A stretch of DNA of 63,306 nucleotides, counting the filler. It is 5 parts of 5 records of this genome, joined end to end, with 100 filler letters (N's around TTAATTAATTAA, not from the genome) between each part and the next. Parts side by side here need not be neighbours in the genome. Positions count along the whole stretch, not along the records: positions 18,908 to 32,453 come from DRR723986_4706; 4 more parts are not named here. One strand, given 5' to 3'. A program made the position numbers and the translations under genes. Numbering within the stretch: position 1 is the first letter of the stretch; each line of letters begins with the position of its first letter. Positions 18,808 through 56,866 of the stretch are shown piece after piece. The notes beneath the pieces were generated by a model. It was not told the DNA's origin. It saw nothing but the letters and a program-made list of their open reading frames with translations, and did not search any database.

Positions 18808-18907
18808 NNNNNNNNNNNNNNNNNNNNNNNNNNNNNNNNNNNNNNNNNNNNTTAATTAATTAANNNNNNNNNNNNNNNNNNNNNNNNNNNNNNNNNNNNN
18901 NNNNNNN
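18808..18907. other. Artificial contig spacer
   Basis: 44 N + TTAATTAATTAA (stops in all frames) + 44 N. Confidence 0.99.
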
Positions 18908-19062
18908 CCGCGCCGCCGCTCTCGCCGAGTGGCGCGGCCTCTGCGCGGCAAAACGATCGGTTCCCCTGTCCTTGTAAAGACTGGTTCGAATTCATCTGGC
19001 AGCACCAAGCCGGGCGTTGTTTGAGTCATCTTCGCTGCTTCCGAATTGACCGCGACAGCCCC

Positions 19063-20355
19063 CTATGACGGGCCAGAGTGGAAATGAGCGCAGGCCTCCA
19101 TCGCGCAGGTAATTGCTTCTTCTGTATTGGCAATATCCGCCGAGCTATGCGCGAGTGAGCTATAGAATTTCATAGGAGCCTTCAGAATACCGTCACGCCG
19201 GAGAGACGCGTTGAAAACTCTTTGAAAATCGGAGTTGGCCCGCAGGGTATCGCGGTAGTCTTTTACCGGCCCGGCAGCAAACACGATATCAAATAGCACC
19301 GGGTCGCCAACGACCGTCGCGGTCAGGCCCGCGTTACTGGCTGTGCGCTCCAAAGACGTCATTAATTGGCGGCCTGTCTGTCGCAGCGCATCATATGCCC
19401 CATCCCGTTTCAGAATCTCCAGCGTCTTTAGACCTGCCGCTGCCGCGACAGGGTTACCGCTGAGGGTGCCGACCTGAAACGTGAATTTGTCTTGCCCTAC
19501 TTTTTCGAGATCGAAATGCGCCATCACGTCGGTGGTGCCCGCGATCGCGGCAAGCGGGAAACCTCCTCCGATCACTTTTCCCAATGTGCAAAGATCAGGG
19601 GTAACACCATAGAGTTCCTGCCCTCCGCCCAGTGCCAGCCTGAAGCCCGTAACAACCTCGTCAAAGATCAAGACAATCCCATGACGGGTCGTCTCCTCGC
19701 GCAGCGCTTCAAGAAACCCCGGGGCAGGTGGAATAAGGCGTTGAAGGGGTTCGACAATGACGCCTGCTAGTTGATCAGCATATTCTGCAATGATCTCGCG
19801 GGCGAAGGGAATGTCATTGAAGGGAGCCACAATCACGCCATCGCGCGTGGCCTGCGTGATACCTGCGGAATCCGGCACAGGTTGCGGGAAATTTGCGAGG
19901 TTCTGGGGGGCCATGCTCATCAAGGCTTCGCCCGACATGCCATGATACCCTCCTTCAAACTTCAGGATCAGATCGCGCCCGGTATGCGCGCGTGCAAGGC
20001 GCATGGCGTACATGTCGGCCTCTGATCCGGTTGAAACGTAACGCAGCTGATCTGCACAGGGCACCGCATCGCAAATGACCTCTGCCAGTTCGATACCCGC
20101 AGCGTTGGAGGTGAAGAAGGTCACGCCATCCGCCAGTTGGGCCTCCACCGCCTCCATGACCTCGGGATGGTTATGGCCCACCAGCATCGGGCCTGAACCG
20201 ATCAGAAAATCGACATATTCTTTGCCGTCTTCGTCCCAGACACGTGAGCCTCGCCCTCTTTTGAGCACGACGCTTGGATCGTAGTTTCCAAACCCTCCGG
20301 CGGGCAGCACCTTTTGCGCCCTTTCGCGCCACTGTTCCTGCTTTGACTGTGTCAT
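19063..20355 (-). CDS. Class III PLP aminotransferase (GSA-aminomutase-like)
   Basis: VWDEDGKEYVD, FEGGYHG, LIFDEVVTGFR, catalytic Lys in TLGKVIGGG, GTLSGNP. Confidence 0.9.
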   Translation of the reverse strand: MTQSKQEQWRERAQKVLPAGGFGNYDPSVVLKRGRGSRVWDEDGKEYVDFLIGSGPMLVGHNHPEVMEAVEAQLADGVTFFTSNAAGIELAEVICDAVPCADQLRYVSTGSEADMYAMRLARAHTGRDLILKFEGGYHGMSGEALMSMAPQNLANFPQPVPDSAGITQATRDGVIVAPFNDIPFAREIIAEYADQLAGVIVEPLQRLIPPAPGFLEALREETTRHGIVLIFDEVVTGFRLALGGGQELYGVTPDLCTLGKVIGGGFPLAAIAGTTDVMAHFDLEKVGQDKFTFQVGTLSGNPVAAAAGLKTLEILKRDGAYDALRQTGRQLMTSLERTASNAGLTATVVGDPVLFDIVFAAGPVKDYRDTLRANSDFQRVFNASLRRDGILKAPMKFYSSLAHSSADIANTEEAITCAMEACAHFHSGPS

Positions 20356-20436
20356 GGCGGCCCCTGTTTTTCAGTTTCTGGCGAAAGTTTCGGCTTGACC
20401 GGGGATGAAGATCAATAAAGAAAATCAGGTAGTTTG

Positions 20437-20450
20437 GTGAATTTTTCTCA
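20437..20450. promoter_or_regulatory. LysR/MetR-type box, copy 1
   Basis: GTGAATTTTTCTCA (T-N11-A, TGA-N7-TCA); exact reverse complement of 26524-26537. Confidence 0.7.
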
Positions 20451-20459
20451 GGTTAAGAT

Positions 20460-21380
20460 ATGTCCGAAGGCCCGTTTCTTGATTTGCGCCACCTCAAGAT
20501 GATCCGTGCCATCGCGGAACACGGGCGTGTCAGCGATGCGGCTGAGGCATTGGGTGTCACGTCTTCCGCCTTGTCCCATCGCATCAAAGAGGCTGAGCGG
20601 CGTCTTGATCTGGTGCTGTTCACCCGCATGCACAAACGGCTGCGCATGACCCCGGCGGCGGAATATCTTGCCGAAATGGCCGACAGAGTGCTGAGCGAAA
20701 TGGACCGCGCAGAACGCGATGTGCGGCGGATGGACCGCGGCGTGGAACACGTCGTGCGCATCGCTGTTGAGGCCTACAGTTCGTATCACTGGCTGCCGGG
20801 ATTCACCAAATATCTGCAAATCCATCTGCCCGGTATTGAGCTTCAGGTTATGGCAAGTGTCACCCGTGAACCAGTTCGCGCACTGACCAACCGGCACGCT
20901 GATATTGTGGTGACTTCTGGGGATCTGACGCCGATTGGCACGCACCGGATACCATTGTTTCGGGATGAGCTGATGTTCATCTTCCCGCCTTATCACCCGC
21001 TCGCAGGAAAGCCCTATGTCGAGGGGGGCGATATTGAAGGTGAGGACTTTATCACCTACACGCTGACGCCTGAACCTGACCGTGAATTTGCCCGCCTGTT
21101 TCGCCCCTCGGGCATGTATCCGCGCTGGACGGCGATGGTTGAGATGCCAGAAGCCATCGTTGAACTGGTTGCCGCTGGTCAGGGCAGCAGTGTGCTCGCA
21201 GGTTGGGCTGTTCGCCCGGCAATTAAGGCAGGTCGCATCGTTGGCGCACGCGTGGGCAAAGACGGAATTGAGGTGCCTTGGGGTGTGCTCATGCGTTCAG
21301 AGGATCAGGGCACGGGACCCATTCTGCAGGTTGCCGAGGCTCTGGCCCAATGGTCAGCGGACAATGGTGGATTTGGCTAG
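20460..21380 (+). CDS. LysR-family regulator (MetR-like)
   Basis: LDLRHLKMIRAI...SALSHRIKEAE HTH; RIAVEAYSSYHWLP resembles MetR RIAIECHSC. Confidence 0.9.
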   Translation: MSEGPFLDLRHLKMIRAIAEHGRVSDAAEALGVTSSALSHRIKEAERRLDLVLFTRMHKRLRMTPAAEYLAEMADRVLSEMDRAERDVRRMDRGVEHVVRIAVEAYSSYHWLPGFTKYLQIHLPGIELQVMASVTREPVRALTNRHADIVVTSGDLTPIGTHRIPLFRDELMFIFPPYHPLAGKPYVEGGDIEGEDFITYTLTPEPDREFARLFRPSGMYPRWTAMVEMPEAIVELVAAGQGSSVLAGWAVRPAIKAGRIVGARVGKDGIEVPWGVLMRSEDQGTGPILQVAEALAQWSADNGGFG

Positions 21381-23794
21381 GATCGCAATCTGTCGTTGTC
21401 AGGGTCATAGGCATGGTGCGCATGGCGCACTGCGGCGCGCATCTCTCCAAAGGCCTGAACGTGGCAATTGTCCCCCATCTCCAGCGTGTTGCGTTCCACA
21501 TATCCAAGAGCGAGCAGTTTCCCAGTGCGATAGCCCATTGAGATGGACGTTACATATCCGATAACCCGCCCCTCAAGGAGGATCGGGTCGGAGGGCAGCG
21601 GTTCCGGTCCCGGATCTCTGATTTCCAGCCCGACAAAGGCCCAGTTCGCTTCCTCCTTGGCTTGTTGCTCCAGCGCTATACGGCCAATGAAGTCCTTTTT
21701 GGACATATTCGCAAATTTGGACAGCCCGGCATCGAATAGCGTGTATTCGGTCCCAAAGTCCGCACCCCAGCCATGATAGCTCTTTTCAATCCGCATCGCG
21801 TTTAGTGCGTAAGAGCCGAAGTTGCAGATGCCATGTTCCGCGCCCGCTTTCCAAACTGCACGATAGAGCGTTTCCAGATCGGCGGAGGCCACATGCAATT
21901 CCCAACCCAATTCGCCAACATAGCTCACCCGCATTGCCGTGACAGGGACGCCCGCAAGGTCGATTTCGGCAACGCTCATCCAAGGCGCGCTGGCCGCACC
22001 GAGGTCAGCAGACGTCAGCGATTGCAACAGGTCACGGGATTTGGGGCCCATCACCAGTAACGCGCCGTCATGGGCGTAGCCCTTGGCCAAGGTCGCGTTG
22101 GCCCCTTCAAGCGCGGCTGATATCCAGTCAAAGTCACGATCAATGGCCATCGTCGGCCCGCAGAGCAGAAACTTGTCATCGGCCAGACGGGCAATGGTTG
22201 CTTCGGACCAGATATAACCCCGAGGAGTCAGCATATAGGAAAGGCGGACGCGCCCGACCGGCGGAAGCGTGCCGCAGATCAGATTGCTGAGCACCATACC
22301 AGCATCCGGCCCTTCAAGCGTAAACTTGGTAAACCCGCCGTGATCCATCACACCGACATGGTCGCGCACGGTTTCACATTCTGTCCGCACCGCGTCTTGC
22401 CACGGTTCATATCCGAAGCTTAGTGCATCCACATCGCTTGCCGGGCCAGGATTGAACCAGAACGCCCGCTCCCACCCGCCAATCTGGCCCATAACAGCGC
22501 CTTGCTGCGATAAATTCGCGTAGAGCGGGGTTTGGTTTACAGGCCGGCCAGAGGTCATGAGCCGGTGCGGATAGGCGATGGCGTATTGAAGGTCATAATG
22601 CTCAGACGCCCGCGCGGCGGCGTAGTCTTGCGTGGCCCACGCTCCAAAGCGGCGCGGATCCCACGCAGAAAGGTCCCATTCGGTTTCGCCAACCGTCAGC
22701 CACTCAGCCATGGCTTTGCCGATGGCAGCGGAATGAGTGATCCCGATCTGAACCCCAGTGGCATGATAGAAGTTCCGCACGCCACCCGCTGGCCCAACCA
22801 AGGGCAAGGCATCGGGAGCGTAGGGGATCGGGCCATTGACGAAGCGTTGCGCACCAGCCTCGGCAAGAAGCGGCACATGGGAGGCTGCGGCTTCGAATAC
22901 GGCCATCATCCCGTCGATGTCGTCTGCAAACAACTGGTGGTCAAAGTCCTGCGGGACGCCGTCTTGCCAGACCGGGCGGCCTTCATGTGCGTATGAACCG
23001 AGCAGAAGTGCGTTACGCTCTCGGCGCAGATAAAACCGAATGTCGGGGTCACGGATCAGGGGGAAGATGGAGGTGTCTTCCTCTAGCGCGGCCAGCGGAG
23101 CGGTCACCATGTATTGATGCTCCAGCGTGACAACAGGAACAAGAAGCCCTGCCAGCGCAGCTATTCTGGCCCCGTTTGATCCTGCCGCATTGATGACGGT
23201 GCCCGCGACAAGTGTGCCATTGGGAGTCTCGACGTCCCATTCGCCGGAAGAGCGTTGGCGCAATCCCGTCACGGGGGTGAACCGTCTGACCTCTGCCCCC
23301 ATCGCTCGGGCATGCTTTGCGAGGGCTTGGGTCAATTGGCTGGGGTCGATGTCGCCCTCATAGGGATCAAGGATACCGCCGAGAACCGTGTCGTCCGCTT
23401 TCCAATAGGGATGCATCTGCTCAATCTCGGGCGTTGCAAGCATCGCAAGGTCAAAACCAGCCGATCGAGACACCCCGCAGAGGTGCTGAAACAACTGCAT
23501 CCGTTCAGGCGTGTGGGCAGGCCAGATGGCCGAGGTGTGGCGATATGTGATCGGCGCGTCAGGGTCTTTTGCCAACTCTTTGTAGAGTTGCCAGGCGTAG
23601 TTGCCCGCCCGCATTCCGAGCCACGAATTGGCATAGGTCGGGATGTTGCCGGCCGCATGCCACGTGGATCCTGCGGTCAGCTCGTTCTTTTCCAACAGAA
23701 CGGTATTGGTGATACCCGCTTTGGCGAGATGATACAGGATCGACGCGCCAACTGCGCCTCCACCAATGACAACAACCTGCGCGTGGGTCGTCAT
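21377..23794 (-). CDS. Dimethylglycine/sarcosine-dehydrogenase-like FAD oxidoreductase with GcvT folate-binding domain
   Basis: GGGAVG, LTAGSTWHAAG (flavinylation His), NGPIPYAPD, GWER and RVSYVGELGWELH motifs. Confidence 0.92.
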   Translation of the reverse strand: MTTHAQVVVIGGGAVGASILYHLAKAGITNTVLLEKNELTAGSTWHAAGNIPTYANSWLGMRAGNYAWQLYKELAKDPDAPITYRHTSAIWPAHTPERMQLFQHLCGVSRSAGFDLAMLATPEIEQMHPYWKADDTVLGGILDPYEGDIDPSQLTQALAKHARAMGAEVRRFTPVTGLRQRSSGEWDVETPNGTLVAGTVINAAGSNGARIAALAGLLVPVVTLEHQYMVTAPLAALEEDTSIFPLIRDPDIRFYLRRERNALLLGSYAHEGRPVWQDGVPQDFDHQLFADDIDGMMAVFEAAASHVPLLAEAGAQRFVNGPIPYAPDALPLVGPAGGVRNFYHATGVQIGITHSAAIGKAMAEWLTVGETEWDLSAWDPRRFGAWATQDYAAARASEHYDLQYAIAYPHRLMTSGRPVNQTPLYANLSQQGAVMGQIGGWERAFWFNPGPASDVDALSFGYEPWQDAVRTECETVRDHVGVMDHGGFTKFTLEGPDAGMVLSNLICGTLPPVGRVRLSYMLTPRGYIWSEATIARLADDKFLLCGPTMAIDRDFDWISAALEGANATLAKGYAHDGALLVMGPKSRDLLQSLTSADLGAASAPWMSVAEIDLAGVPVTAMRVSYVGELGWELHVASADLETLYRAVWKAGAEHGICNFGSYALNAMRIEKSYHGWGADFGTEYTLFDAGLSKFANMSKKDFIGRIALEQQAKEEANWAFVGLEIRDPGPEPLPSDPILLEGRVIGYVTSISMGYRTGKLLALGYVERNTLEMGDNCHVQAFGEMRAAVRHAHHAYDPDNDRLRS

Positions 23795-24499
23795 TCAATA
23801 TGCCTCCAACAATGTGCCAAAGCCTTTGATCGGGTCCTTGATCCCAGCGGCGCGCAACGCCTGCCAATAGACGGCGGCATTGCAGGCTACGATGGGTTTG
23901 TGGTGCGCTGCCTCCAACTCGGCGATCAGGGCCACCACGGGCAAGGCGGTGCCGACTTGCAAGATGACGTCACAGTCGGAGGCGGCAATCTCGGCAAAGA
24001 CCGCGCGAATATCATCCAGGGGAGTTTCGCAAATCGCTGGCAGGGAGGGGGCATTGGTGCCTTTGATAGCGACCACCTCGAACCCTGCGTTTTCAGTGTT
24101 GGCTTGCACCACCGCGTCGACTTCTGCGCTGAAGGGCGTGACAATGCCAACGCGCTTGGCCTTCAAGACGCGCAAGCCCTCGTAGTCCGCCTGAGAGGCC
24201 CCAAGAACGGGCACCCCGATCTTCTGTGAAATCTCGGCACAGCGCGCGGCCAGCTTGTCCGGCCCACCGGGGCCTGCATCTGTGGTCAGGCCAACAGCAA
24301 TCACCAACGGCGCGCAGTCCATCAATTTGGCCGCTTCATCGGGCAGATCATCCGAGATCGCATCACCACCCAAGCGAAAGCGCTGCATCTGGTTTGTCAC
24401 GCCATTCGGGCGCAGCAGTTCCAGTTCGGGCTGCACGACGGTGTTCATCGCGGGCGTCATCACACCAATCACGGCACGGGGGGCGAGGGTGTCAGCCAT
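23795..24499 (-). CDS. Asp/Glu racemase / maleate isomerase / arylmalonate decarboxylase superfamily protein
   Basis: IGVMTPAMNTVVQPE, RVGIVTPF, KPIVACNAAVYWQALR and GFGTLL motifs. Confidence 0.85.
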   Translation of the reverse strand: MADTLAPRAVIGVMTPAMNTVVQPELELLRPNGVTNQMQRFRLGGDAISDDLPDEAAKLMDCAPLVIAVGLTTDAGPGGPDKLAARCAEISQKIGVPVLGASQADYEGLRVLKAKRVGIVTPFSAEVDAVVQANTENAGFEVVAIKGTNAPSLPAICETPLDDIRAVFAEIAASDCDVILQVGTALPVVALIAELEAAHHKPIVACNAAVYWQALRAAGIKDPIKGFGTLLEAY

Positions 24500-24950
24500 C
24501 CTTTTTCTCCTTCAGAAATGCGTTCAATCCGGCCATGCCGCCAATGTAGATTGCATCCCCAACAGTCTTTTCCATCTCCTTGGAAACGTCTGGGGCGCAG
24601 TCGAATTGACTCTCCCAAATGCCCAGGGTCTGACCGGAGTGCGTGATGGGAATGAAGCGATGGGTCGAGACATATCCAGTGACAGGCAACGCGCTGTCGA
24701 GGATATCATAGGTGTAGAAGTGCTCCGCATCGGAATGCGCCAACAAGGTTTCCCGAAACACCGAACCGTCCGCTATATCGAGCTTGCGGATCGTGCCAGT
24801 TGCGGTTGGAGACCCGTTTTCCAGTTTGGCCATCACAACGCCAGGGTTCCAATGCACCACCCCGTCAAAGGCACGCACGGCGGACCAGACCTTGGTGATG
24901 TCGGCGTCAATGATCATGCTTCGGTAAACGTGCATAGCAGCTCCTGTCAT
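24492..24950 (-). CDS. SRPBCC (polyketide cyclase/START-like) protein
   Basis: VWSAVRAFDGVVHWNP, GTIRKL, RETLLAHSD and YTYDI motifs. Confidence 0.88.
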   Translation of the reverse strand: MTGAAMHVYRSMIIDADITKVWSAVRAFDGVVHWNPGVVMAKLENGSPTATGTIRKLDIADGSVFRETLLAHSDAEHFYTYDILDSALPVTGYVSTHRFIPITHSGQTLGIWESQFDCAPDVSKEMEKTVGDAIYIGGMAGLNAFLKEKKDG

Positions 24951-26452
24951 GTCTTCAGACGGATGGGATAACGCCCGCGAATGCGCGCTTCTGCATCAAC
25001 ATTTAGATGCATGGGCGGCGACGCAGCGAGGATGTCTGCAACGCGACTGCGCGCCTGATCCCAGATTGACAGGCGGCCCGCGTCAATCCAGTCATTGACA
25101 CTCTGACGGTTGGCAAGCGCCGGGTAGTGGTAGTCAGATTTCATGCGCCTCAAGGTCTCGGCCTCGCCAAGATAATGACCGTCACGGGTGACCACACGTT
25201 CCACGGCGCCAAGATCAAGCGTAGCTGCGCTGACCTCAATTCCCCGGATCGAACGCAGGATCGCCCCGCACATGTCATCATCGATGACCATCGCCTCGGC
25301 GCTTGCCACCATGATGGATCCGAGCATCCCAACGGAAAGGTTGATCATATCCGCGCCGCCATGCCCGGCCAGCGCGACAGTATAGCCTTTCTCATACCCA
25401 GCCTGCGCATCAACCAGTTTGGAATCAGTCATGCCTGCCGACACAGTCGAGGGCAGCCCGATATGCGCCAAGATCTGCGCGGCGGCGGCGTTTGCAATCG
25501 CGGCTTCCCCACTGCCACCACTCATCGCGCCGGTGCGCAAGTCAGAGATGAAGGGCATCAGCGCGTAGATGCAGGACGCAGATCTTTGAATGCCATCAAC
25601 CACCATAAGTCCCGCAAGGCATTCCGCCAGCCCCTGCGCCAACGCGCCTGCCAAGGTGACAGGGCTGGTGGCACCTGCTTGTCCTGCCGAGCATATCTGC
25701 GGGATCATGCCTTCACGCACAGCTTTCTCCAGCATCAATATGCCCTCCGCCGCATAGGTGAGAGGCGGGACCACATGGACAATGACGGCCATGCAGAACG
25801 GTCTTTCGCGAAAAGCACCAGAATGACCAAGTGCGATGTCAAACATCTCGACAATCGGATCGATATGGTCCGCGTCGCAAAAGCTGATGCCGATGGGTTT
25901 GCTGGTCGCCTTGAGGCAAGCAAAGGCAGTGTTGATGTCCAGTTCAAACGGATCTGTCAGATCCCTGGCAACAACGGGTCGAACGCCATAGTGAATATTT
26001 GAAGACGCATCCAAAACGCGCATCAGGTCGTAAAGATCGCTCAGCTTACTGTCCCGGTAGGCCCCGGTTGCCGCATCAAGCATTTGAACGGCAGCGCCGC
26101 CTGTCCCGATATGCACGCGACGACCACCGATCTGCAAATCCCTGTCAGCCGTGAAGCCCGGCAAAGTGACGTGGCGTGGTGCGCGCTCCAATGCGCTCTG
26201 GATCATGTCTTTTGGAAAACACAGCCGCCCGTCTGCACGGTGCCAGGCACCCGCTTTCAGCGCACGTTCAGTTGCCATCGTCGGCAACCCCGCCATCCCC
26301 ACTGCCGAGAGGATATCAAACGCATGGGACACAATGGCTGTGACTTCAGACAGTGACAGCGGCCGCAAGTCCCCTCCGACGGGGACAACAGGTGGCGGAT
26401 TCAGGCCACTACCGTCTTCGGCCTCCCGTTGCTTTCGTATCCGTCTTGCCAT
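24947..26452 (-). CDS. Trimethylamine methyltransferase (MttB) family protein, non-pyrrolysine
   Basis: GTGGAAV, SAGQAGATSPVTLAGALAQ, PFISDLRTGAMSGGSGE and GMTDSKLVDAQAGYEK motifs; no in-frame amber codon. Confidence 0.92.
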   Translation of the reverse strand: MARRIRKQREAEDGSGLNPPPVVPVGGDLRPLSLSEVTAIVSHAFDILSAVGMAGLPTMATERALKAGAWHRADGRLCFPKDMIQSALERAPRHVTLPGFTADRDLQIGGRRVHIGTGGAAVQMLDAATGAYRDSKLSDLYDLMRVLDASSNIHYGVRPVVARDLTDPFELDINTAFACLKATSKPIGISFCDADHIDPIVEMFDIALGHSGAFRERPFCMAVIVHVVPPLTYAAEGILMLEKAVREGMIPQICSAGQAGATSPVTLAGALAQGLAECLAGLMVVDGIQRSASCIYALMPFISDLRTGAMSGGSGEAAIANAAAAQILAHIGLPSTVSAGMTDSKLVDAQAGYEKGYTVALAGHGGADMINLSVGMLGSIMVASAEAMVIDDDMCGAILRSIRGIEVSAATLDLGAVERVVTRDGHYLGEAETLRRMKSDYHYPALANRQSVNDWIDAGRLSIWDQARSRVADILAASPPMHLNVDAEARIRGRYPIRLKT

Positions 26453-26523
26453 TTTTGCACCTCTGGGGAGGTATTAGAACGCAAATCCATCATGTTGAGT
26501 ATTCAATAAAGCGGCAGGTATTG

Positions 26524-26537
26524 TGAGAAAAATTCAC
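26524..26537. promoter_or_regulatory. LysR/MetR-type box, copy 2 (upstream of mttB-like gene)
   Basis: TGAGAAAAATTCAC; both copies are flanked by TCAATAAAG and CAGGTA. Confidence 0.7.
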
Positions 26538-26565
26538 GCATAAGCATGTCAGAAGTCGGCCGAAC

Positions 26566-26850
26566 TGAGCTACTCCACCCCGAAATTCGGGCACTGGCGT
26601 AAGCTACAGTTTGCAATCTGCTGAACTTCGACGAGCAGGAGATCAGAGATGTCGAAACGCAGGCAGCACGCGCCCGAGATCAAGGCGAAGATCGTGCTGG
26701 CCACCCTGAAGGGCGAGGAAGCGACGGCTGAGGTGGTTCGGGGTACATCTGTTACCGGCAACGCATGCAAAGCATGTGTGACAGGCGACGATGATCCATC
26801 AATGGAAGCAGTTGTTGCTCGAAACCGCCTCCGGTGTGATCGATCCTTGT
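26566..26850 (+). mobile_element. IS3-family remnant (left end plus broken orfA)
   Basis: TGAGCTACTCCACCCCGAAATTCGGGCAC resembles an IS3 IRL; MSKRRQHAPEIKAKIVLATLKGEE, then MIHQWKQLLLETASGV in another frame; no orfB. Confidence 0.8.
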
Positions 26851-27014
26851 CCGGCCCCGCCGCATGCGCGGTGTGAAAACCGTTCAGTAGCGCTTGCTGC
26901 CAATATCTCGCGCCTGAAACGTCCTACCGGGTCAGCGCGGTGTCATCGGTCACGAGGGCTGCGACAAGGGCAAACAGGACGGCATTCCGCCCAGAAGCCT
27001 TTTCAGAACCGATA

Positions 27015-28064
27015 TCATGCGCGGCCTCCATGTGTTTCAATGATCTTCAGAACCTTCAGCAGGAAGTTGAATGGCCGTTTCGGTGCATCGGTCTGGTTGA
27101 AGGTGCCGGTCAGGAAGATGTCGTGATCCACCGCGTGGAAGGCAAATGAGCCGCTAGCGCCCGAATGCCCGATCAGTTCCGGCGAAGGTTGCCAGAGCGT
27201 CATCCAGCCGGGCAATCCGAACCGCATCAATCCGCCACCGTAGTGCAGCGGGAAGTTCAGCCGCTGCCATTGCCGGAGCGATGGCAAGTTCTCGGGGCGG
27301 AAGAGACGCCCCTGCATGAAAGCGCGCAGGAAGGTCATAAGATCACTCGTGTCGGACAGGATGCCGCCATCCGGCCCCATGCTGGACAGGATGCGCGAAA
27401 TGTGGAGTCTTCGGGTCTTGTGGTAGACGGGAAGGGTCCGCCCGTCGCCGTCACGGTTCGCATCAAAGAGCGCTGTCCGGGTCAGGCCCAATGGTGCGCA
27501 GATCCGCGCCTGTATAGCGTCACCATAGGGCATGTCCGTGACCGCTTCGATGATCGCGCCTAGAAGCTGGTAGTTGGTGTCCGAATAGGACGCCCGACCG
27601 CTGTCCGGAGCAGCTTGCGGGGCTCTGGTCCGAGTCCAGTCGAGCACTTGGCGCAGGTCGTAGGCATGATCCCTGCTGCGGATCACATCCCCAGCCACGC
27701 CGCCCTCGTAATAGTCGGCGAGGCCCGAGGTCTGGTACATGAGCTGGCGGATTGTCAGACGGGGGCCATGGTCGACGCCTCGCACCACATGCAGGCCCGA
27801 CAGGTCGATCCTGGGCAGGACGCCCTGAACCGTCTGATCGCTTCCCAGCCGCCCTTCGTCAAACAATTGCTGGATGATCGCAGCGGTAAACATCTTGGAA
27901 ATGCTGGCGATCGGAAACCTGCTGGCCGGGGTCGCTTCGCCTGCGCTGCCGCTGAAGTTGATCCGGCCATCCCCGGACTGGACACGCAGGAGTGCAGCCT
28001 GGGCCTTGCCTCTCGATTGCGCCATCTCGAGGTGCGACTGCAGGGCATCGTCGAGGCCGGTCAT
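27015..28064 (-). CDS. Serine hydrolase, beta-lactamase/PBP-like family
   Basis: SxxK in FPIASISKMF, YSDTNY, GHSG; start MTGLDD overlaps the upstream stop. Confidence 0.9.
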   Translation of the reverse strand: MTGLDDALQSHLEMAQSRGKAQAALLRVQSGDGRINFSGSAGEATPASRFPIASISKMFTAAIIQQLFDEGRLGSDQTVQGVLPRIDLSGLHVVRGVDHGPRLTIRQLMYQTSGLADYYEGGVAGDVIRSRDHAYDLRQVLDWTRTRAPQAAPDSGRASYSDTNYQLLGAIIEAVTDMPYGDAIQARICAPLGLTRTALFDANRDGDGRTLPVYHKTRRLHISRILSSMGPDGGILSDTSDLMTFLRAFMQGRLFRPENLPSLRQWQRLNFPLHYGGGLMRFGLPGWMTLWQPSPELIGHSGASGSFAFHAVDHDIFLTGTFNQTDAPKRPFNFLLKVLKIIETHGGRA

Positions 28065-28735
28065 GTCGCTGCTGCCTTCGCGTCGTTCCCGGTCATGAGC
28101 AGCGCCACGCCGACGCCTAGAAACCACCCGATGGCTCCAAGCCCGAAGACTGCTCCGGCGGCATCGCCGAGGGCCGGGACCAACGTGACCAGACCGCCAA
28201 GCCCTGTGAAAAGGCCGATCCAGGCGATCGGGCGTGGAAGCCTGCGCCCAATCAGCCCGGCCAGGCTGACGCATGAAATCCAGACGCCGCCCGCGATCTC
28301 GTTCCCGCCGCCGAGACCGAGTTCAACCGCGTGAAGCATGGCCCAGAGATTCGCTGCGGCTCCGGGGTCTTGCGGGTAGAGATGCACGGCGCGCTCGACG
28401 GCGACATTGGCGATCATGCCGGCACCGAGAACGAGCGCCGCCCAGATCAGGCCGAAGGCGCGCGTCACCGCTGCCCAGCCCGGCAGTTGCGCCAGGCGTT
28501 CCGCCAATGCGACCGCGAGAACGGTGAGCGCCAGTGCGTTCACGATGTAAATCGTCGTGTTCCAGGCGATCAACACGCCCGGTCGCGCGTCGATGAATGC
28601 GCCGACGGCGTCTGGGTCGATCTCGCCAGTTCCAAATCCCAAAGGGGCCAGTAGTGTGACCAGCAACGCAAAGCCGATCAGGTAGGTGGCCGCACAAGTC
28701 AGAGCGGCAAGGCCGCCGATACGGGTGAGGGTCAT
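28061..28735 (-). CDS. DUF4386-like membrane protein
   Basis: About six hydrophobic helices; GLGGGNEIAGGVW motif; start MTLTRIGG. Confidence 0.78.
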   Translation of the reverse strand: MTLTRIGGLAALTCAATYLIGFALLVTLLAPLGFGTGEIDPDAVGAFIDARPGVLIAWNTTIYIVNALALTVLAVALAERLAQLPGWAAVTRAFGLIWAALVLGAGMIANVAVERAVHLYPQDPGAAANLWAMLHAVELGLGGGNEIAGGVWISCVSLAGLIGRRLPRPIAWIGLFTGLGGLVTLVPALGDAAGAVFGLGAIGWFLGVGVALLMTGNDAKAAAT

Positions 28736-29619
28736 GCTTGATCTGCCATGGTTTTGGACGGCGATGATGCCGTCGGTTGCGCGCCCAGCCGCTTGAAGTG
28801 ATCTATGAGCTTGCGAGTGCCGAAGGGCGTCCCGACCATGTCCAGTCCAGCCGCTGTCAAAAAGAACAGCGCAGGGCCATGGATGCGGCGCGGGGTCAGG
28901 CGCGGCAGAAGCAGCAGCACGATGCGGCGGAGCCAATCGGGCAGGCGGGTGACCTTCTCTGGTTTGCCGACAGCAGCAAAGGCCGCCCTGGTCAGTTCGG
29001 ATTGGCTGAAAACGTCCGGCCCGCCCACGTCCAGCCAAGCACGCCTCTCGGCAATGGCATCGGCAGTGGCAGCAGCCAGATCGGCCCCGTGGATCGGGTT
29101 GATCTTGTGGGCACCGGACCCAAACAGCCACATGCGACCAAACCGAGCCGCCGACAGGAAATCGGCCATGTCCGAGAAGTAGCCTGAGGGCGCGATTACG
29201 GTCGAGGCGATATCGGCATCCTGCAAGGCGCTTACGAAGGCCGATTTTGCCGCCACCAGTGGCACATGACGCATCTTTCTGGCGTTTAGCACATGGATAT
29301 AGGCAAAGCGCCTAATCCCGGCGCGCTGTGCCTCAATCAGCAGGTTCAGGTTTGCCTGATAATCCACATCCCAATACCCCAGACCATCCGCCTGCCGGGT
29401 GATGCCAAGCGCGGAAACCAAAAGATCGGCACCCTCCATGACGCCTGCCAGCGTGTTCGGCTTGGTGGCTTCCGCCTCGATCAGTGTATCTGCCGCAAGG
29501 TCTTGCGCGGCTGAGGCATCGCGCACCAGCGCCACAACCCGCCAGCCGCGGCGGCGGTACTCGGAACAAAGATGGCGACCGAGATAACCCGTGGCGCCTG
29601 CGATGAAGACGGTTTGCAT
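28732..29619 (-). CDS. Atypical SDR / NAD(P)H-binding oxidoreductase
   Basis: IAGATGYLG, SALGITRQ, VDYQANLNLL and NPIHGADLA motifs. Confidence 0.9.
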   Translation of the reverse strand: MQTVFIAGATGYLGRHLCSEYRRRGWRVVALVRDASAAQDLAADTLIEAEATKPNTLAGVMEGADLLVSALGITRQADGLGYWDVDYQANLNLLIEAQRAGIRRFAYIHVLNARKMRHVPLVAAKSAFVSALQDADIASTVIAPSGYFSDMADFLSAARFGRMWLFGSGAHKINPIHGADLAAATADAIAERRAWLDVGGPDVFSQSELTRAAFAAVGKPEKVTRLPDWLRRIVLLLLPRLTPRRIHGPALFFLTAAGLDMVGTPFGTRKLIDHFKRLGAQPTASSPSKTMADQA

Positions 29620-29752
29620 GAAGTATCCTTTCTGATGGACGGTCTAAAGAAATGCAGTTTTGAAGACGGCAAGTCGCACGCCATGTACGAATTCATGAAC
29701 ATTGGCCTTCATTCCGGGCCGCCTTTCCGAACGAGATTTGCAAAACAGGCTG

Positions 29753-29947
29753 TCAGAGCTTTCGGCCAAGCGCGGTGCGGACAGTCCGCTCTTCTTCCAG
29801 AACCGGAAGGCCAACATCCCGCCTGAGCCGCGTAGATGTCGGCTGCGATGACGAGATTCCGCGTGTGCGCCATGCACCCGCCAGCAGATCTGCAAGAGAA
29901 TAGATACCCGCCAGACGGGCACGGCGACGATAAGAGACTTGTGCCAT
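29753..29947 (-). CDS. Small basic protein (64 aa) with DUF1127-like LRRDVGL motif
   Basis: SD AAGGAAAGGA before MAQVSYRRRAR...; lies inside a co-oriented cluster. Confidence 0.5.
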   Translation of the reverse strand: MAQVSYRRRARLAGIYSLADLLAGAWRTRGISSSQPTSTRLRRDVGLPVLEEERTVRTALGRKL

Positions 29948-29981
29948 GGAGAATTCCTTTCCTTTGGCGATTGAATGGTAG

Positions 29982-30344
29982 TCAGCCGACCACGCGATGG
30001 CCACGGCCGCGCAGGCATTGGGTAACGATGGCTTCTCGCCGCTCAGTCGCGTTGACAGCACCCGCCGCGCCGCCCGCCACAGCGCCCACGATGGCTCCGG
30101 CCAGGGCGTCTCCATCGTCGTCAACCTCACCCAAAACGGCACCGGCACCAGCACCAAGAGCAGCTGCGCCCATGGTTTCCCGATCGAACTGCCGCTGATT
30201 GCGGGCAAGGTTCTGGCAGGCGGCGAGATCGCTTTGGAACGTCGCGGTGGGCGCACCATCGAGGATCGGTGTGTAGTTGGCGCCGCTGTTGGCACAGGCC
30301 GTCAGCAGGACTGGAAGAATGGCGGTGAGATAGATCGGTTTCAT
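29982..30344 (-). CDS. Glycine-zipper lipoprotein
   Basis: Lipobox LLTAC; DLAACQNLA, Gly/Ala zipper and C-terminal CLRGRGH. Confidence 0.88.
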   Translation of the reverse strand: MKPIYLTAILPVLLTACANSGANYTPILDGAPTATFQSDLAACQNLARNQRQFDRETMGAAALGAGAGAVLGEVDDDGDALAGAIVGAVAGGAAGAVNATERREAIVTQCLRGRGHRVVG

Positions 30345-30439
30345 TGGTTTTTCCTTGGGTTCCGAGAACAGGACTAAAGGCGCGCAAACACGAGGCGTGC
30401 GGCGTGAAGGATGTGTTTGGGATAGGCGTCAGGCGTCGG

Positions 30440-31483
30440 TCAGTCGGGACCGTCACGGATAAGGGCGGCGTATGCATCCGATCCGCGAAACCTGTCGCGG
30501 TAATCGGAGGCTGAGACTCCCAGATGCCGTTGGAATGCGCGCCGCATACGTTCTGCGTTTTGAAAACCTGTCTGTATGGCAATCTGTTCGACACCGCTTG
30601 ACGTAGCCTCAAGCGCGACCCGTGCCGACTGCACGCGTGCTGTTTCGACATAGGATGCGGGCGTAAGCTGCGTCTCGTCCTTGAACCGACGTGCGAATGT
30701 CCGCTCTGACATGCCAGCGCGGGCAGCCAATGCCGTGACGGTCAGCGGATCGCCGGGATTGGCAAGGATGTATTCCAGGGTCGCATTAATGGCCGGATCT
30801 TCCGCGCGTTGCGCCACCAGATGGGCGCTGAATTGCGACTGGCCGCCGGGGCGCATCATGTACATCACATTGTAGCGCGCGACCTGAAGCGCGATGTCGT
30901 GGCCCCAGTCCATCTCGACCAACGCAAGCGCCAAGTCCATTCCGGCGGTAACGCCGGCCGAGGTCCAGATGCTTCCGTCCCGCACGAAGATCGCATCCCG
31001 GTCCACCGTCACGCCAGGATAGCGTTGCTCCAGTATCGGGCACCACCACCAATGCGTGCTGGCGCGTTTACCTTCCAATAACCCGGCCTCGGCGAGGATC
31101 ATGGCCCCGGTGCAAATCGAAACGATCCTCCGTGATCTGGGCGCCGCCCGGCTGACGAAATCCATCAAGCCTGCATCCTCGAGCGCCGCCATCGTTCCAT
31201 GACCGCCGCTGACAATCAGAGTATCGATCAGGTCGGTATCTTCGACGGCTTCGGCAAAGGACCGATGCGCGGTCAGGCTCAATCCCGACGTCGTTGATAC
31301 CGGCCCGGCATTTGCAGCGACGACCGTCACAGCATAAGGATCCGGCCCTTCGGGCAGGAAGAACTTGGTCCCGGTCAAGATCTCGAGCGGCCCGACAACA
31401 TCGAGTATATGGGCATCCGGGTAGGTGACCATGACCACGCTGCGGCTTCGCTGCTTTGACAGATATGTTGGTTTGTGTGCCAT
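30440..31483 (-). CDS. GlxA-family regulator (DJ-1/PfpI + AraC HTH)
   Basis: LDVVGP, SICTGA, TSAGVTAGMDLAL, RPGGQSQFS and AraC MSERTFARRF. Confidence 0.93.
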   Translation of the reverse strand: MAHKPTYLSKQRSRSVVMVTYPDAHILDVVGPLEILTGTKFFLPEGPDPYAVTVVAANAGPVSTTSGLSLTAHRSFAEAVEDTDLIDTLIVSGGHGTMAALEDAGLMDFVSRAAPRSRRIVSICTGAMILAEAGLLEGKRASTHWWWCPILEQRYPGVTVDRDAIFVRDGSIWTSAGVTAGMDLALALVEMDWGHDIALQVARYNVMYMMRPGGQSQFSAHLVAQRAEDPAINATLEYILANPGDPLTVTALAARAGMSERTFARRFKDETQLTPASYVETARVQSARVALEATSSGVEQIAIQTGFQNAERMRRAFQRHLGVSASDYRDRFRGSDAYAALIRDGPD

Positions 31484-31640
31484 ATTCTGACACTAGGCCA
31501 ATCTGGACAGTGACCGTTAGGACAAAGACCCCTCGGTTTCTGCCAGACGACGGGAAATCTGGAAGATTGAAAATCCCTCGCTCGATGCACGCTCTCGAAT
31601 CCTCTATCGAAGAGAAATATCGTATATGTTTTCAATGTCT

Positions 31641-31656
31641 TGGTGCCTGGAGAGGG
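31641..31656 (-). mobile_element. Candidate att site: isolated tRNA-Leu-like 3' end
   Basis: Minus strand CCCTCTCCAGGCACCA (T-stem/acceptor + CCA) with no tRNA 5' part. Confidence 0.45.
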
Positions 31657-32053
31657 TTCGACGTCAGTCCTGTCCTACCGCCATTTTCCCATTGCAAACC
31701 CGAGGCAAAGCCCCCGTCTGGGCCTTTTTTCTTTTTGTTTCAAAGGGGACTAGCACCTGCATCGTTCAATCAGCGTAAGGCGTCCACTACTGGTTCGCTT
31801 TGATGAAAGCGTTCGCGATTGCAGCGTGTTTCCGCAGGAGCTTCGTGGTCGAAACTTGGCTGGTGCGTACAAAACTCATTCAAGTCAGATTGTGAAAGAG
31901 GAAACGCCGTATCGTGAATATGGATGCAGCAACTAACGCAATCTCAACCTGATCGCCGCAACACCACGAACCCAGCCGGGCCAAGATACCGGCTTACGAT
32001 AGACTGCTCGCGGCGAGGCGCAATCGTCAAACTACCCCAAGGGCAGTGGCCCC

Positions 32054-32270
32054 ATGGTCGAGGGCGACGCCCGCCTGCCGATGCAAGTCACCGACACCGG
32101 GGTTCTGGTGGACCAACCGCCGGCGCCCCCCCCTTTCCGCGCGCATCCTGAGGGCGTGCGATGCGCCGGCACCTGCCACGGACCCCGTTTCGGCACGGCG
32201 CGAGGGCTGCGCGACCCTACTGGAAAATGCCTTTTTCCGGGTCGAGATCGGTCCGCATGGCATGGTAGGC
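32054..32270 (+). pseudogene. Possible fragment of a GH38 alpha-mannosidase-like gene
   Basis: RLPMQVTDTGVLVDQP, frameshift at a C run, then LSARILR...TLLENAFFRVEIGPHG, which resembles the GH38 LEN..lrv.i...G motif. Confidence 0.3.
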
Positions 32271-32453
32271 TCGAGACTTCGATCGCCAGGTCGCGGAATT
32301 GCAAGTTCGAATCGCCGTACTGAACGGCTACACCGCTCTTGGCATACCCGTCACTGTGGCCGTAGAGTAAATCCGTCCGGGGAAAGGGGAAGCCCGGCCC
32401 TCAGCCGATTTGTGCAACAAAGCCGGGTGGCGGCTGGAGATCAGATCAACTGC

Positions 32454-32553
32454 NNNNNNNNNNNNNNNNNNNNNNNNNNNNNNNNNNNNNNNNNNNNTTA
32501 ATTAATTAANNNNNNNNNNNNNNNNNNNNNNNNNNNNNNNNNNNNNNNNNNNN
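32454..32553. other. Artificial contig spacer
   Basis: 44 N + TTAATTAATTAA + 44 N. Confidence 0.99.
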
Positions 32554-45874: not shown

Positions 45875-45974
45875 NNNNNNNNNNNNNNNNNNNNNNNNNN
45901 NNNNNNNNNNNNNNNNNNTTAATTAATTAANNNNNNNNNNNNNNNNNNNNNNNNNNNNNNNNNNNNNNNNNNNN
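45875..45974. other. Artificial contig spacer
   Basis: 44 N + TTAATTAATTAA + 44 N. Confidence 0.99.
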
Positions 45975-46269: not shown

Positions 46270-46381
46270 AACTATGAGTACGCTGAGTTTTTCCTGGAGG
46301 GTGCAAGAAAGTTGATCACCGGACTATTATAATAACCATTCCAAATTCAGTAATTTGAACTCCATAAAACGACCCAATCCT

Positions 46382-47353
46382 ATGAAATCCTTTTTCACGC
46401 TAGCATTTCTCCTTATTGCTGTAACAGCATTTTCTCAGTCCAAAGATCACTGGACAACTATAGAAACAGAAAACTTCCCCCTTCCAAGACATGAAAATTC
46501 CTTTGTAGAGAACAATGGTAAATTTTATCTTTTAGGCGGACGTGGGATAAAACCTATTGAAGAATACGATCCCAAAACCAACATGTGGAAGACAATGGCA
46601 ATGGCTCCTATGGAATTCCATCATTTTCAAGCCATCTCATTCAAAAATGAAATTTACGTGATTGGAGCCTTAACAGGTGGGTATCCTCACGAAACGCCAT
46701 TGACCCATTTTCTGATTTTCAATCCAAAAACAAATGAATGGCGACAGGGAGCTGAAATTCCTGAAGATAGAAGAAGGGGCTCAGTTGGAGTAACAGTTCG
46801 TGGTGATAAAATCTACCTGGTATGCGGCATCGTCGATGGACATTATGCCGACTTTGTTCCGTGGTTTGACGAGTATGATGCCAAAACAGGCCAATGGACA
46901 GTTCTTCCGGATGCACCAAGACCCAGAGATCATTTTGGGGCTGTATTGGTAGAGGATAAAATCTATGCAGCTGGCGGGAGAACTTCTCACGCTGAAATTG
47001 GAAAAGTGCTGGATTTGGTAATACCCGAGGTTGATTTCTTTGATTTCAAAACTAATTCCTGGAATACAGTGGAGGCAGGTTTGCCTACCCCAAGAGGAGG
47101 CACTTCATCCATTGGAAATGGAAAATATTTACTGGTGATGAATGGTGAAAGTACAGTGCAAGAATCCTCTCATGCAGAGGTTGAAGTTCTCGATACTCGA
47201 ACTGGCGAATGGTCAAGCCTTCCTGATTTGAATCGAGGGCGACATGGCACTGGAGTGATCTACTACAAAGGCAAGCTCTATGTGGCAGCTGGAAGTGCCA
47301 AACGAGGTGGAGGCCCAGAGCTGAACACCATGGAAGCACTGGACTGGAAATAG
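46382..47353 (+). CDS. Secreted kelch-repeat beta-propeller protein
   Basis: Signal peptide; six GG/G...Y/F-D/N...W kelch blades (PRHE, PRDH, PRGG, GRHG). Confidence 0.9.
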   Translation: MKSFFTLAFLLIAVTAFSQSKDHWTTIETENFPLPRHENSFVENNGKFYLLGGRGIKPIEEYDPKTNMWKTMAMAPMEFHHFQAISFKNEIYVIGALTGGYPHETPLTHFLIFNPKTNEWRQGAEIPEDRRRGSVGVTVRGDKIYLVCGIVDGHYADFVPWFDEYDAKTGQWTVLPDAPRPRDHFGAVLVEDKIYAAGGRTSHAEIGKVLDLVIPEVDFFDFKTNSWNTVEAGLPTPRGGTSSIGNGKYLLVMNGESTVQESSHAEVEVLDTRTGEWSSLPDLNRGRHGTGVIYYKGKLYVAAGSAKRGGGPELNTMEALDWK

Positions 47354-49102: not shown

Positions 49103-49669
49103 TTACAAAGCGATTAAGTAAATAAAAAACGTGATCACTCCTATCGCCAAACCAATGATAAAAACAGTGTAGGCATGCGCCAGAAGCTTATATTTTCTAT
49201 TTAAAACCTTTCCTTGATAGTATAAGGAAATAGCCATCTGCTCTTGAACTTGTTTTTTGGATGGTAAGATTTCGTCCAGTTCTGTGAGGTATTCCTGAAG
49301 GGTAAAGTTGGAACTAACTCCAAAAAACATCATGCTGGACTTCACTTCCTCTTCATTATTTTTTCTCTTACCCAGAAATTTGGGTCTAGCTGCCTGCACC
49401 GCCAAGATAGTAGACACCAAGCAAGTAGTAATCAAAACCATAATTGGTATCAAAGTAACTGTCCTTTCGTAATCAAATTGATGGGATAGCGTACCGTAGC
49501 CTATAATCGCAACTACTGAGGAAATCACCAGCGCATTGATGCTGATTACAATATTGGCTTTATTGTCTGCGATCTGAAGCAGGTTACAATTATTCATGAA
49601 AGTCACACGGAAAAAAGTCTGAGTTGCTCTTTCTGTTTTATCTTTTTTAGGCTCCAAAATTTCTTCCAT
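49103..49669 (-). CDS. Pycsar-effector-family (DUF5706/PycTM-like) membrane protein, stand-alone
   Basis: TFFRV...LQIADNKANIVISINALVIS, TM2 ending A.RP, MFFG, LNRKYKLL..AY + TM3; start MEEILE. Confidence 0.8.
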   Translation of the reverse strand: MEEILEPKKDKTERATQTFFRVTFMNNCNLLQIADNKANIVISINALVISSVVAIIGYGTLSHQFDYERTVTLIPIMVLITTCLVSTILAVQAARPKFLGKRKNNEEEVKSSMMFFGVSSNFTLQEYLTELDEILPSKKQVQEQMAISLYYQGKVLNRKYKLLAHAYTVFIIGLAIGVITFFIYLIAL

Positions 49670-49840
49670 TTCAATAAAATTGTTCGTCCTGAATTTACAA
49701 AATAATTTACCGATCCGAGGTAAGTCTTTGAAAGAGTTCAAATTAGCCATTTCCTCTCAAATTCATAACAAAAAGGAAATCATTGATTACTTATCGGAAA
49801 TGGAAAAAGTCCCTATACTTATCCTTCAAATCAATAAGTA

Positions 49841-56766: not shown

Positions 56767-56866
56767 NNNNNNNNNNNNNNNNNNNNNNNNNNNNNNNNNN
56801 NNNNNNNNNNTTAATTAATTAANNNNNNNNNNNNNNNNNNNNNNNNNNNNNNNNNNNNNNNNNNNN
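56767..56866. other. Artificial contig spacer
   Basis: 44 N + TTAATTAATTAA + 44 N. Confidence 0.99.

Follow-up and report, generated by a model that had tools for sequence, protein, structure and literature searches.

Gene arrangement at the locus

The window analysed here, i.e., the whole stretch of 63,306 nucleotides (nt), is composed of five contigs that are chained by spacers of the form N44-TTAATTAATTAA-N44 (six-frame stop linkers). The contig at positions 18908–32453 (DRR723986_4706) carries a cluster of four genes encoding an MttB-superfamily methyltransferase, an SRPBCC protein, a protein with the fold of arylmalonate decarboxylase (Amdase) and a flavoprotein of the dimethylglycine dehydrogenase (DMGDH) family, which are accompanied by the genes for a LysR-type regulator and a class-III aminotransferase. 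All six open reading frames (ORFs) listed in an earlier, sequence-only reading of this DNA were found at their places, and each matches a Pfam family. The features are:

24947–26452, minus strand: MttB-superfamily methyltransferase of a divergent clade ("group B"), first gene of the operon (PF06253, 320 bits)
24492–24950, minus strand: SRPBCC protein (Polyketide_cyc2), a small ligand-binding fold (Pfam, 65 bits)
23795–24499, minus strand: arylmalonate-decarboxylase/maleate-isomerase-fold protein of 234 amino acids without catalytic cysteines (PF17645, Amdase, 51 bits)
21377–23794, minus strand: DMGDH-family flavoprotein with a folate domain, last gene of the operon (DAO, FAO_M, GCV_T and GCV_T_C)
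20460–21380, plus strand: LysR-type regulator (HTH_1 and LysR_substrate)
19063–20355, minus strand: class-III aminotransferase of the glutamate-1-semialdehyde (GSA)-aminomutase/beta-transaminase branch (Aminotran_3, 207 bits)
26524–26537, minus strand: LysR box TGAA-N5-YTCA upstream of mttB (exact 14-mer, also at 20437–20450)
20437–20450, plus strand: second copy of the LysR box, in the spacer between lysR and the aminotransferase gene (exact 14-mer)
26473–26510, minus strand: promoter-like block TTTATTGAAT ... TCTAAT between the box and the ribosome-binding site (upstream alignment of about 30 loci)
18808–18907, 32454–32553, 45875–45974 and 56767–56866: spacers between the contigs

The junctions agree with the overlapping or abutting minus-strand genes described before: the MttB and SRPBCC genes overlap by 4 nt, the SRPBCC and Amdase-like genes overlap by 8 nt, and the Amdase-like and DMGDH genes abut. 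The coordinates also place lysR as had been claimed, convergent on the operon with a 4-nt overlap with the DMGDH gene and divergent from the aminotransferase gene across 104 nt. Because the contigs are joined, the histidine kinase on the left and everything beyond 32.4 kb are without physical linkage to the cluster, and the statement that the cluster includes neither a corrinoid protein nor a transporter is valid for 13.5 kb alone.

Conservation and distribution

In species-representative genomes, a scan with the MttB protein as query identified 64 loci, 56 of which contain an MttB ortholog of at least 55% identity; 46 of these 56 have at least 3.7 kb of sequence downstream. A DMGDH gene is found downstream of the MttB gene in all 46, and the order MttB-SRPBCC-Amdase-like-DMGDH is found in 40, the MttB gene being followed directly by the DMGDH gene in the other six (L009, L043, L045, L046, L049 and L051). 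An independent scan of metagenome contigs with the Amdase-like protein as query yielded 79 loci. Where the contigs had room, the SRPBCC gene lies upstream of the Amdase-like gene in 64 of 65 loci, the MttB gene is present in 37 of 37 and the DMGDH gene lies downstream in 50 of 50; the Amdase-like gene was thus never met outside this context. The gene arrangement recurs far beyond chance, and the neighbourhood-conservation check that the sequence-only reading had asked for turned out in its favour, as the genes co-occur elsewhere in most genome loci with room and in nearly all metagenome loci with enough flank.

The carriers include Ruegeria, Roseovarius, Tateyamaria, Sulfitobacter, Amylibacter and others of the Rhodobacterales; Pelagibius, Kiloniellaceae, Rhodospirillales and Hyphomicrobiales among other Alphaproteobacteria; Granulosicoccaceae and Oceanospirillaceae of the Gammaproteobacteria; and Acidimicrobiaceae of the Actinomycetota. 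Cultured carriers include Ruegeria halocynthiae, R. atlantica, R. arenilitoris, Roseovarius conchicola and Pelagibius sp. Within the genus of Ruegeria halocynthiae, an Amdase-like ortholog is found in only 12 of 70 genomes, and the flanking genes vary even among close relatives. This patchy distribution and these variable flanks suggest that the cluster is an accessory, probably mobile, module. In one metagenome-assembled genome (MAG), the flavoprotein gene is followed, without a change of strand, by genes for a BtuF-like binding protein, an ABC ATPase and a FecCD permease (L020:15135–17828); they may encode a cobalamin (or siderophore) importer that travels with the module.

The LysR regulator and the conserved box

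Two exact copies of GTGAATTTTTCTCA are found in the window. The copy on the mttB side spans 72–85 nt upstream of the mttB start codon, and the copy on the lysR side is separated from the lysR start by 10 nt and, on its other flank, from the aminotransferase start by 82 nt. The conserved core in the aligned upstream regions is a T-N11-A LysR dyad, TGAA-N5-YTCA. In about 30 such regions the box is followed by the conserved TTTATTGAAT...TCTAAT block and then by the ribosome-binding site, and this block may represent the -35 and -10 elements. A simple sigma-70 and terminator scan of positions 18950–27100 did not call the block at 26473–26510, but it is uninformative, with fewer matches than were obtained in shuffles.

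Other loci were searched for the box by a scan for the TGAA-N5-YTCA pattern, which has a background of 0.11 matches per kb in the genome loci and which replaced a longest-common-substring comparison of the two promoter regions that was too insensitive. Half of the genome loci (26 of 52) have a box some 84 nt ahead of mttB, and 21 of the 24 genome loci that hold lysR have one 8–10 nt before lysR (73 nt before lysR in L042). Among genome loci, lysR and the mttB-upstream box are both present in 23 and both absent in 17, with lysR only in one and the box only in two; the lysR-only locus is L042, whose box stands before an extra first gene. Among metagenome loci of the same arrangement, both are present in seven and neither in five, with no discordant case. 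In a second arrangement, lysR is divergent from an omega-transaminase gene that leads the operon, and the box is located 74–87 nt upstream of the transaminase gene in 15 of 15 loci; it is 47 and 102 nt upstream in the other omega-transaminase loci L045 and L090, respectively, which brings the boxes to 17 of 17. The class-III aminotransferase gene found in the window adjoins lysR in 16 of 42 genome loci.

Since the box co-varies with lysR across loci, the earlier reading of the six genes as one regulon stands: the same box at the mttB operon and in the lysR-aminotransferase spacer provides strong comparative evidence that one LysR protein would control both the operon and the aminotransferase gene. 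Its HTH_1 and LysR_substrate domains and the T-N11-A site at the promoters concerned identify the protein as a LysR-type regulator. The label "MetR-like", which had also been attached to it, has to be dropped, as its score against NF011950 is 118 bits with a cut-off of 382.

The MttB-superfamily protein

The first protein of the operon scores 320 bits against PF06253 (curated cut-off of 25; residues 8–491) and is therefore a member of the MttB superfamily. It does not match the pyrrolysine-containing trimethylamine methyltransferase MttB, because its ORF is uninterrupted under translation table 11 and its score against TIGR02369 is 290 bits, below the cut-off of 525. Its nearest solved relative is MtgB (9yce/2qne), with an E-value of 2e-46 over residues 47–492. 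The structure of MtgB with bound glycine betaine and mutagenesis define the residues Y97, R312, H348 and F356 (PMC13080624), and R312 is, according to its authors, also conserved in the enzymes for carnitine, proline betaine, butyrobetaine and phosphocholine. In a HMMER alignment to the structure, these four residues correspond to G119, T336, L372 and I380 of the protein in the window, and the latter are kept across 52 other rows of the orthogroup that are 58–86% identical to it, with single exceptions at T336, L372 and I380. By this alignment, the MttB homologue is not an MtgB, as all four glycine-betaine-binding residues are replaced.

R. halocynthiae possesses four high-scoring paralogs ("group A") that retain the Arg and His, and a "group B" that consists of the ortholog of the cluster's MttB and three further paralogs, all without Arg/His. 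The members of group B have in common the motif TGGAAV and an Arg at position 158; this Arg158 is, as a candidate only, an alternative binding residue. In a quick maximum-likelihood tree, for which SH-aLRT is the only measure of support, the 54 orthogroup rows (the window protein and 53 from other loci) fall on one branch with a support of 100, and the split between group A and group B also has a support of 100. Because group-B genes recurrently adjoin DMGDH paralogs and once another class-III aminotransferase gene, the combination of a group-B MttB, a DMGDH and in some cases an aminotransferase looks like a reusable cassette. At another locus of R. halocynthiae (L069:1–8296; G001:C3), a gene for a 268-residue protein without a Pfam or NCBIfam match is followed on the same strand by genes for a group-B MttB (44% identical), a class-III aminotransferase (30%) and two DMGDH paralogs; it seems to be another methylamine cassette, distinct from that of the window but built on the same plan.

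The putative corrinoid partner

No corrinoid gene was found on the 13.5-kb contig or among 126 immediate neighbours in related loci. In Ruegeria pomeroyi, MttB-family proteins pass methyl groups to MtgC (SPO2160), which is encoded apart from them; mtgC is followed by a DUF1638 gene, and MtgD moves the methyl group to tetrahydrofolate (SPO2160/SPO2162; Mausz et al., 2025; PMC12478193). The same study counts up to seven pfam06253 paralogs per genome whose substrates are unassigned. Each of five cluster-carrying genomes examined here has 8–14 PF06253 matches, and all five have one MtgC-like gene (B12-binding_2 and B12-binding domains with a DxHxxG motif) that is followed by a DUF1638 gene; the MtgC-like proteins are 72–88% identical across these genomes. 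The observation that the cluster lacks a corrinoid protein thus holds for the contig, but as an anomaly it falls away: because the relatives encode MtgC-DUF1638 elsewhere, the lack of an in-cluster corrinoid gene is the norm for organisms of this kind. By analogy with R. pomeroyi, this MttB protein would use a trans-encoded MtgC. The MtgC of an Acidimicrobiaceae MAG (L075; G004:C129) is 72% identical to that of Ruegeria (L072), and its contig holds three MttB paralogs within about 55 kb; this likeness reflects either lateral transfer of a whole methylamine island or contamination of the bin.

The flavoprotein

The last protein of the operon has the four-domain architecture of the DMGDH family and its histidine for covalent attachment of flavin adenine dinucleotide (FAD). 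It scores 545 bits against human DMGDH (5l46), and His46 in its STWHAAG motif aligns with the covalent-FAD histidine; in human DMGDH the FAD linkage site is His91 (PMC5082570). It passes no NCBIfam equivalog. The R. halocynthiae genome of locus L002 (G001) encodes 12 full-length DMGDH-family proteins and eight MttB-family proteins, and another of its DMGDH paralogs is nearer to the human enzyme (582 versus 545 bits). On contig C4 of this genome, two DMGDH paralogs are 3 kb apart, including the one nearest to human DMGDH; this pair probably represents the true enzymes for the later steps of glycine betaine breakdown.

The Amdase-fold and SRPBCC proteins

The AlphaFold2 model of the Amdase-fold protein has a mean predicted local distance difference test (pLDDT) score of 91.9, and Foldseek matched it to 4fq7, 2xed and 3dg9 with template modelling (TM) scores of 0.80–0.86 and E-values of 3e-14 to 1e-13, which establishes the superfamily fold. 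The EutA model gave 62 bits, below its cut-off of 318, and in the ESM Atlas the protein falls only in generic clusters named "maleate isomerase/decarboxylase family". In this superfamily, a cysteine follows the third strand of each half in the isomerases and racemases (Cys/Cys), while the decarboxylase has Gly74/Cys188. The corresponding positions here, located by HMMER alignment and the strands of the model, are G70/L71 and V182/G183, and neither holds a cysteine; all 36 sequences compared have L71 and G183. Of the oxyanion hole, the Thr72-Thr73 pair is retained, and Tyr126 of the decarboxylase is replaced by Phe123. The fold thus bears out part of the earlier "racemase/isomerase" assignment, but, with the catalytic cysteines missing, the sequence gives no support for a decarboxylase or for a canonical racemase or isomerase of the two-base type. 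A role in carboxylate binding is plausible, and the invariant Cys62, Cys157 and Cys206 elsewhere in the protein leave room for a relocated catalytic residue, i.e., an unorthodox catalyst.

The Amdase-like protein is the most conserved of the four, with a mean column identity of 86% compared to 76% for MttB. Six genome loci lack both it and the SRPBCC protein, one of them with an MttB that is 80% identical. The solved relatives of the SRPBCC protein (7tmu, 2le1 and 3cnw) are all uncharacterised. SRPBCC and Amdase-fold proteins are most likely a dispensable accessory pair with a ligand-binding function rather than that of a canonical racemase.

Aminotransferases and other recurrent partners

The aminotransferase in the window scores below the cut-offs for HemL (NF000818, 378 < 398; TIGR00713, 345 < 527), and its matches in the Protein Data Bank are GSA aminomutases (E-value of 8e-89) followed by beta-transaminases (1e-51). 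Partner genes were counted in 134 loci (55 from genomes and 79 from metagenomes), many of which are incomplete. An omega-transaminase gene occurs in 18 of them and lies directly upstream of the MttB gene in 15 of the 18; that of L042 passes PRK06105 (553 > 517). A 3-hydroxyisobutyrate dehydrogenase (HIBADH) gene occurs in 25 loci, and the L031 copy passes TIGR01692 (309 > 291.6). Less frequent are sulfatase (11 loci), PxpA of 5-oxoprolinase (seven loci) and a class-V aminotransferase-fold protein (four loci). The sulfatase gene is translationally coupled to the DMGDH gene in L009 and lies between the DMGDH gene and lysR in L013, and L025 has a sulfatase of a second type; a gene for the sulfite exporter TauE follows the DMGDH gene in L024. 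The order in an Acidimicrobiaceae locus is aminotransferase-aminotransferase-MttB-DMGDH-HIBADH on one strand.

At least two unrelated aminotransferases have been recruited to the same operon or box. The proposal that transamination belongs to the pathway gains from this, as non-orthologous aminotransferases were recruited in different lineages. The recurrent aminotransferases and HIBADH, a dehydrogenase specific for acids of the 3-hydroxy/3-oxo-propanoate type, argue that demethylation would yield a beta- or omega-amino acid, from which transamination would give a semialdehyde.

Other features of the window

The G+C contents of the five segments are, in order, 60.3, 59.5, 53.0, 42.3 and 66.3%, and the DNA seems to stem from a draft bin in which contigs are mixed or foreign. 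A putative 5' half of a tRNA gene with a GGTAGCTCAGCTGGATAGAGCA-type D-arm is found at the end of the first contig (18780–18807). The contig of the cluster also encodes on the minus strand, between 27015 and 31483, a beta-lactamase-fold protein (27015–28274), an NmrA/SDR-like protein (28732–29619) and an AraC-type regulator with a DJ-1/PfpI domain (30440–31483). The last architecture matches that of GbdR/CdhR, which regulate the catabolism of betaine and carnitine. In other loci, the three genes are not conserved beside the module. Between the mttB promoter and the beta-lactamase-fold gene is a short plus-strand ORF (26649–26760) that has no Pfam match; its first 30 or so residues may resemble the N-terminus of OrfA transposases of the IS3 family. 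A second contig of run X11 matches the window at 26637–26669 only and diverges on both sides, as the end of a repeat would. This repeat-like end near 26649 hints at a mobile-element scar that adjoins the module.

The 42% G+C contig (45975–56766) encodes a Kelch-repeat protein (46355–47353), a SIMPL/DUF541 protein, a small O-methyltransferase, a membrane protein of the Pycsar effector type (PycTM; 49103–49750) with no adjoining cyclase on the contig, a phospholipase C (49841–52369), a large radical-SAM protein (52965–55151) and a dienelactone hydrolase.

Proposed function and alternatives

We propose, with a probability of about 0.6, that the cluster serves, under activation by LysR, the catabolism of a methylated ammonium compound that is not glycine betaine. 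Based on its family and on the R. pomeroyi system, the divergent MttB would move one N-methyl group to the cobalamin of a trans-encoded MtgC, and MtgD would hand the methyl group to tetrahydrofolate. The DMGDH-type flavoprotein, to judge from its family, would then oxidatively strip the next methyl group or groups onto tetrahydrofolate and leave a primary amine. From comparative genomics, an aminotransferase would turn this amine into an oxo-acid or aldehyde; it would be the GSA-aminomutase/beta-transaminase-like enzyme under the same LysR box here and the operon-leading omega-transaminase elsewhere. In many lineages, an enzyme of the 3-hydroxyisobutyrate-dehydrogenase type may then process the product.

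The best single guess for the substrate is beta-alanine betaine or a 2-substituted relative, a tentative one that is well short of even odds. Beta-alanine betaine is produced in natural marine communities according to isotope labelling (PMC9321204), and our literature search found no paper on its demethylation. More specifically, and somewhat more doubtfully still, the module might fill a gap as the bacterial route for beta-alanine betaine, which is the nitrogen counterpart of dimethylsulfoniopropionate (DMSP); alternatively, its substrate might be a 2-substituted relative, for example the head group of the betaine lipid diacylglycerylhydroxymethyl-trimethyl-beta-alanine (DGTA). The MttB clade would then bind its substrate without the canonical Arg/His, the Amdase-fold and SRPBCC proteins would assist, and the omega-transaminase and HIBADH would provide a malonate-semialdehyde-type end. 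The sequence-only reading had also considered an N-methyl heterocycle with ring processing; no evidence for this was found, and the published homarine operon has different genes. Homarine and trigonelline, as substrates handled via the published hom genes, were ruled out because the gene families differ.

Several observations weigh against the proposed function or the substrate suggested for it. The acid-binding Arg of the characterised quaternary-amine methyltransferases is Thr in this protein, so that a carboxylated betaine would need a different binding mode. Beta-alanine betaine does not explain the sulfatase genes, the 5-oxoprolinase genes or the TauE gene found at 11, seven and one loci, respectively. 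The presence of MtgC and MtgD in the source organism is assumed from its relatives. No transporter is conserved beside the module among related loci. Contigs of four sequencing runs from several studies provide near-identical DNA or RNA, but no start, end, strand or level of a transcript.

A sulfate ester or sulfonate could take the place of the carboxylate in a substrate that is processed by the same logic, such as one like choline-O-sulfate or taurine betaine. The sulfatase genes in or beside the operon at 11 loci (coupled in L009, also in L013 and of a second type in L025), TauE after DMGDH in L024 and the loss of the carboxylate-binding Arg/His of MtgB are consistent with such a substrate. 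However, the sulfatase reaches the cut-off neither for choline sulfatase (131 < 433) nor for arylsulfatase, and most loci, that of the window among them, do without it; the dehydrogenase scores as HIBADH and not as sulfolactaldehyde reductase (309 versus 135 bits), and in the Amdase-fold protein the Thr pair that forms part of the oxyanion hole for the carboxylate is retained. We consider this variant unlikely. It is also conceivable, but quite unlikely, that the group-B MttB works free of a corrinoid, for instance by direct methyl transfer to tetrahydrofolate or a different acceptor, for which the SRPBCC and Amdase-fold proteins would be its specific helpers. The lack of a corrinoid gene among the 126 immediate neighbours, the deep split of group B from group A, the loss of residues common to the characterised corrinoid-dependent enzymes and the extreme conservation of the accessory pair (mean column identity of 86%) point in this direction. 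Against it stand the MtgC-DUF1638 genes in five of five genomes tested, the BtuF-type transporter at one locus and the absence of the accessory pair from six loci, including that of the close ortholog at 80% identity; no fused long forms of the MttB protein (878–2505 amino acids) that would name another partner were found, which is weak evidence.

The cluster could finally be an ordinary glycine-betaine route, in which an MtgB makes dimethylglycine for an ordinary dimethylglycine dehydrogenase. Such a route would suit a full-length flavoprotein that scores 545 bits to human DMGDH and keeps the flavinylation histidine, and genes for the later demethylations are often near mtgBCD in marine bacteria (PMC12478193). 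We regard it as very unlikely, as none of the four MtgB binding residues is kept, a paralog nearer to human DMGDH is encoded in the same related genome, and the module is found in only 12 of 70 genomes of the genus. Moreover, no R. pomeroyi protein is among the 120 best matches (all with at least 65% identity), although this strain grows on glycine betaine, and a glycine-betaine route would have no use for the recurrent aminotransferase and HIBADH partners in its later steps.

Much of the exchange between phytoplankton or invertebrate hosts and marine bacteria runs through methylated nitrogen osmolytes, whose demethylation links nitrogen and one-carbon flow to vitamin B12. The proposed module for a compound other than glycine betaine is a well-delimited and widespread candidate (>130 loci) for one of the unassigned paralogs of the R. 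pomeroyi type. The signature TGGAAV together with Thr, Leu and Ile at the MtgB binding positions separates the whole MttB clade, which annotation now lumps as "trimethylamine methyltransferase". With its defined regulator, operator and downstream enzymes, the module lends itself to a search for the inducer in Ruegeria or Roseovarius strains in culture, and the main value of the finding is that it opens the question of the substrate to direct tests there.

Comparison with known systems

The closest parallel is MtgBCD(E), the cobalamin-dependent glycine-betaine demethylase of R. pomeroyi (Mausz et al., 2025; PMC12478193), which likewise comprises an MttB-family substrate module in an aerobic roseobacter with MtgC/MtgD encoded elsewhere. 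Unlike that system, the MttB described here belongs to a separate clade without the glycine-betaine residues and would be linked to MtgC by analogy, and its own flavoprotein, two accessory proteins, a dedicated LysR and an aminotransferase travel along. Mausz et al. anticipate other substrates for the pfam06253 paralogs (PMC12478193). MtgB of Desulfitobacterium hafniense and MtcB, MtpB, MtyB and MthB of Eubacterium limosum share the TIM-barrel superfamily, but these enzymes are from anaerobes and are encoded beside cognate corrinoid genes, unlike this cluster (PMC13080624). With dimethylglycine dehydrogenase/oxidase (human 5l46, rat 4pab and Arthrobacter 1pj5), the flavoprotein shares the four-domain architecture, the flavin histidine and the folate domain; a related genome encodes 12 such paralogs, and the one nearest to the human enzyme is not the ortholog of this flavoprotein. 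The fold and the Thr/Ser oxyanion pair are common to the Amdase-fold protein, arylmalonate decarboxylase, maleate cis-trans isomerase and EutA, while the cysteines and Tyr126 differ. The homABCDER operon (Ferrer-Gonzalez et al., 2026; PMC13236597) likewise serves an N-methylated metabolite of marine origin in roseobacters and has a dedicated regulator; the families named in the available part of that report, i.e., the flavin-binding HomA, HomB, the peptidase HomC and the aldehyde dehydrogenase HomD, are absent here.

The gene combination had been put forward as one without a described pathway, and no description of it was found in the literature, supplementary tables being outside the search. 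The logic of cobalamin-type methyl transfer, folate-linked oxidative demethylation and transamination is familiar. The novelty lies in the combination of a separate MttB clade that has lost the canonical binding residues, one DMGDH paralog as its obligate partner, a cysteine-less Amdase-fold/SRPBCC pair, a dedicated LysR operator and a consistent set of downstream enzymes.

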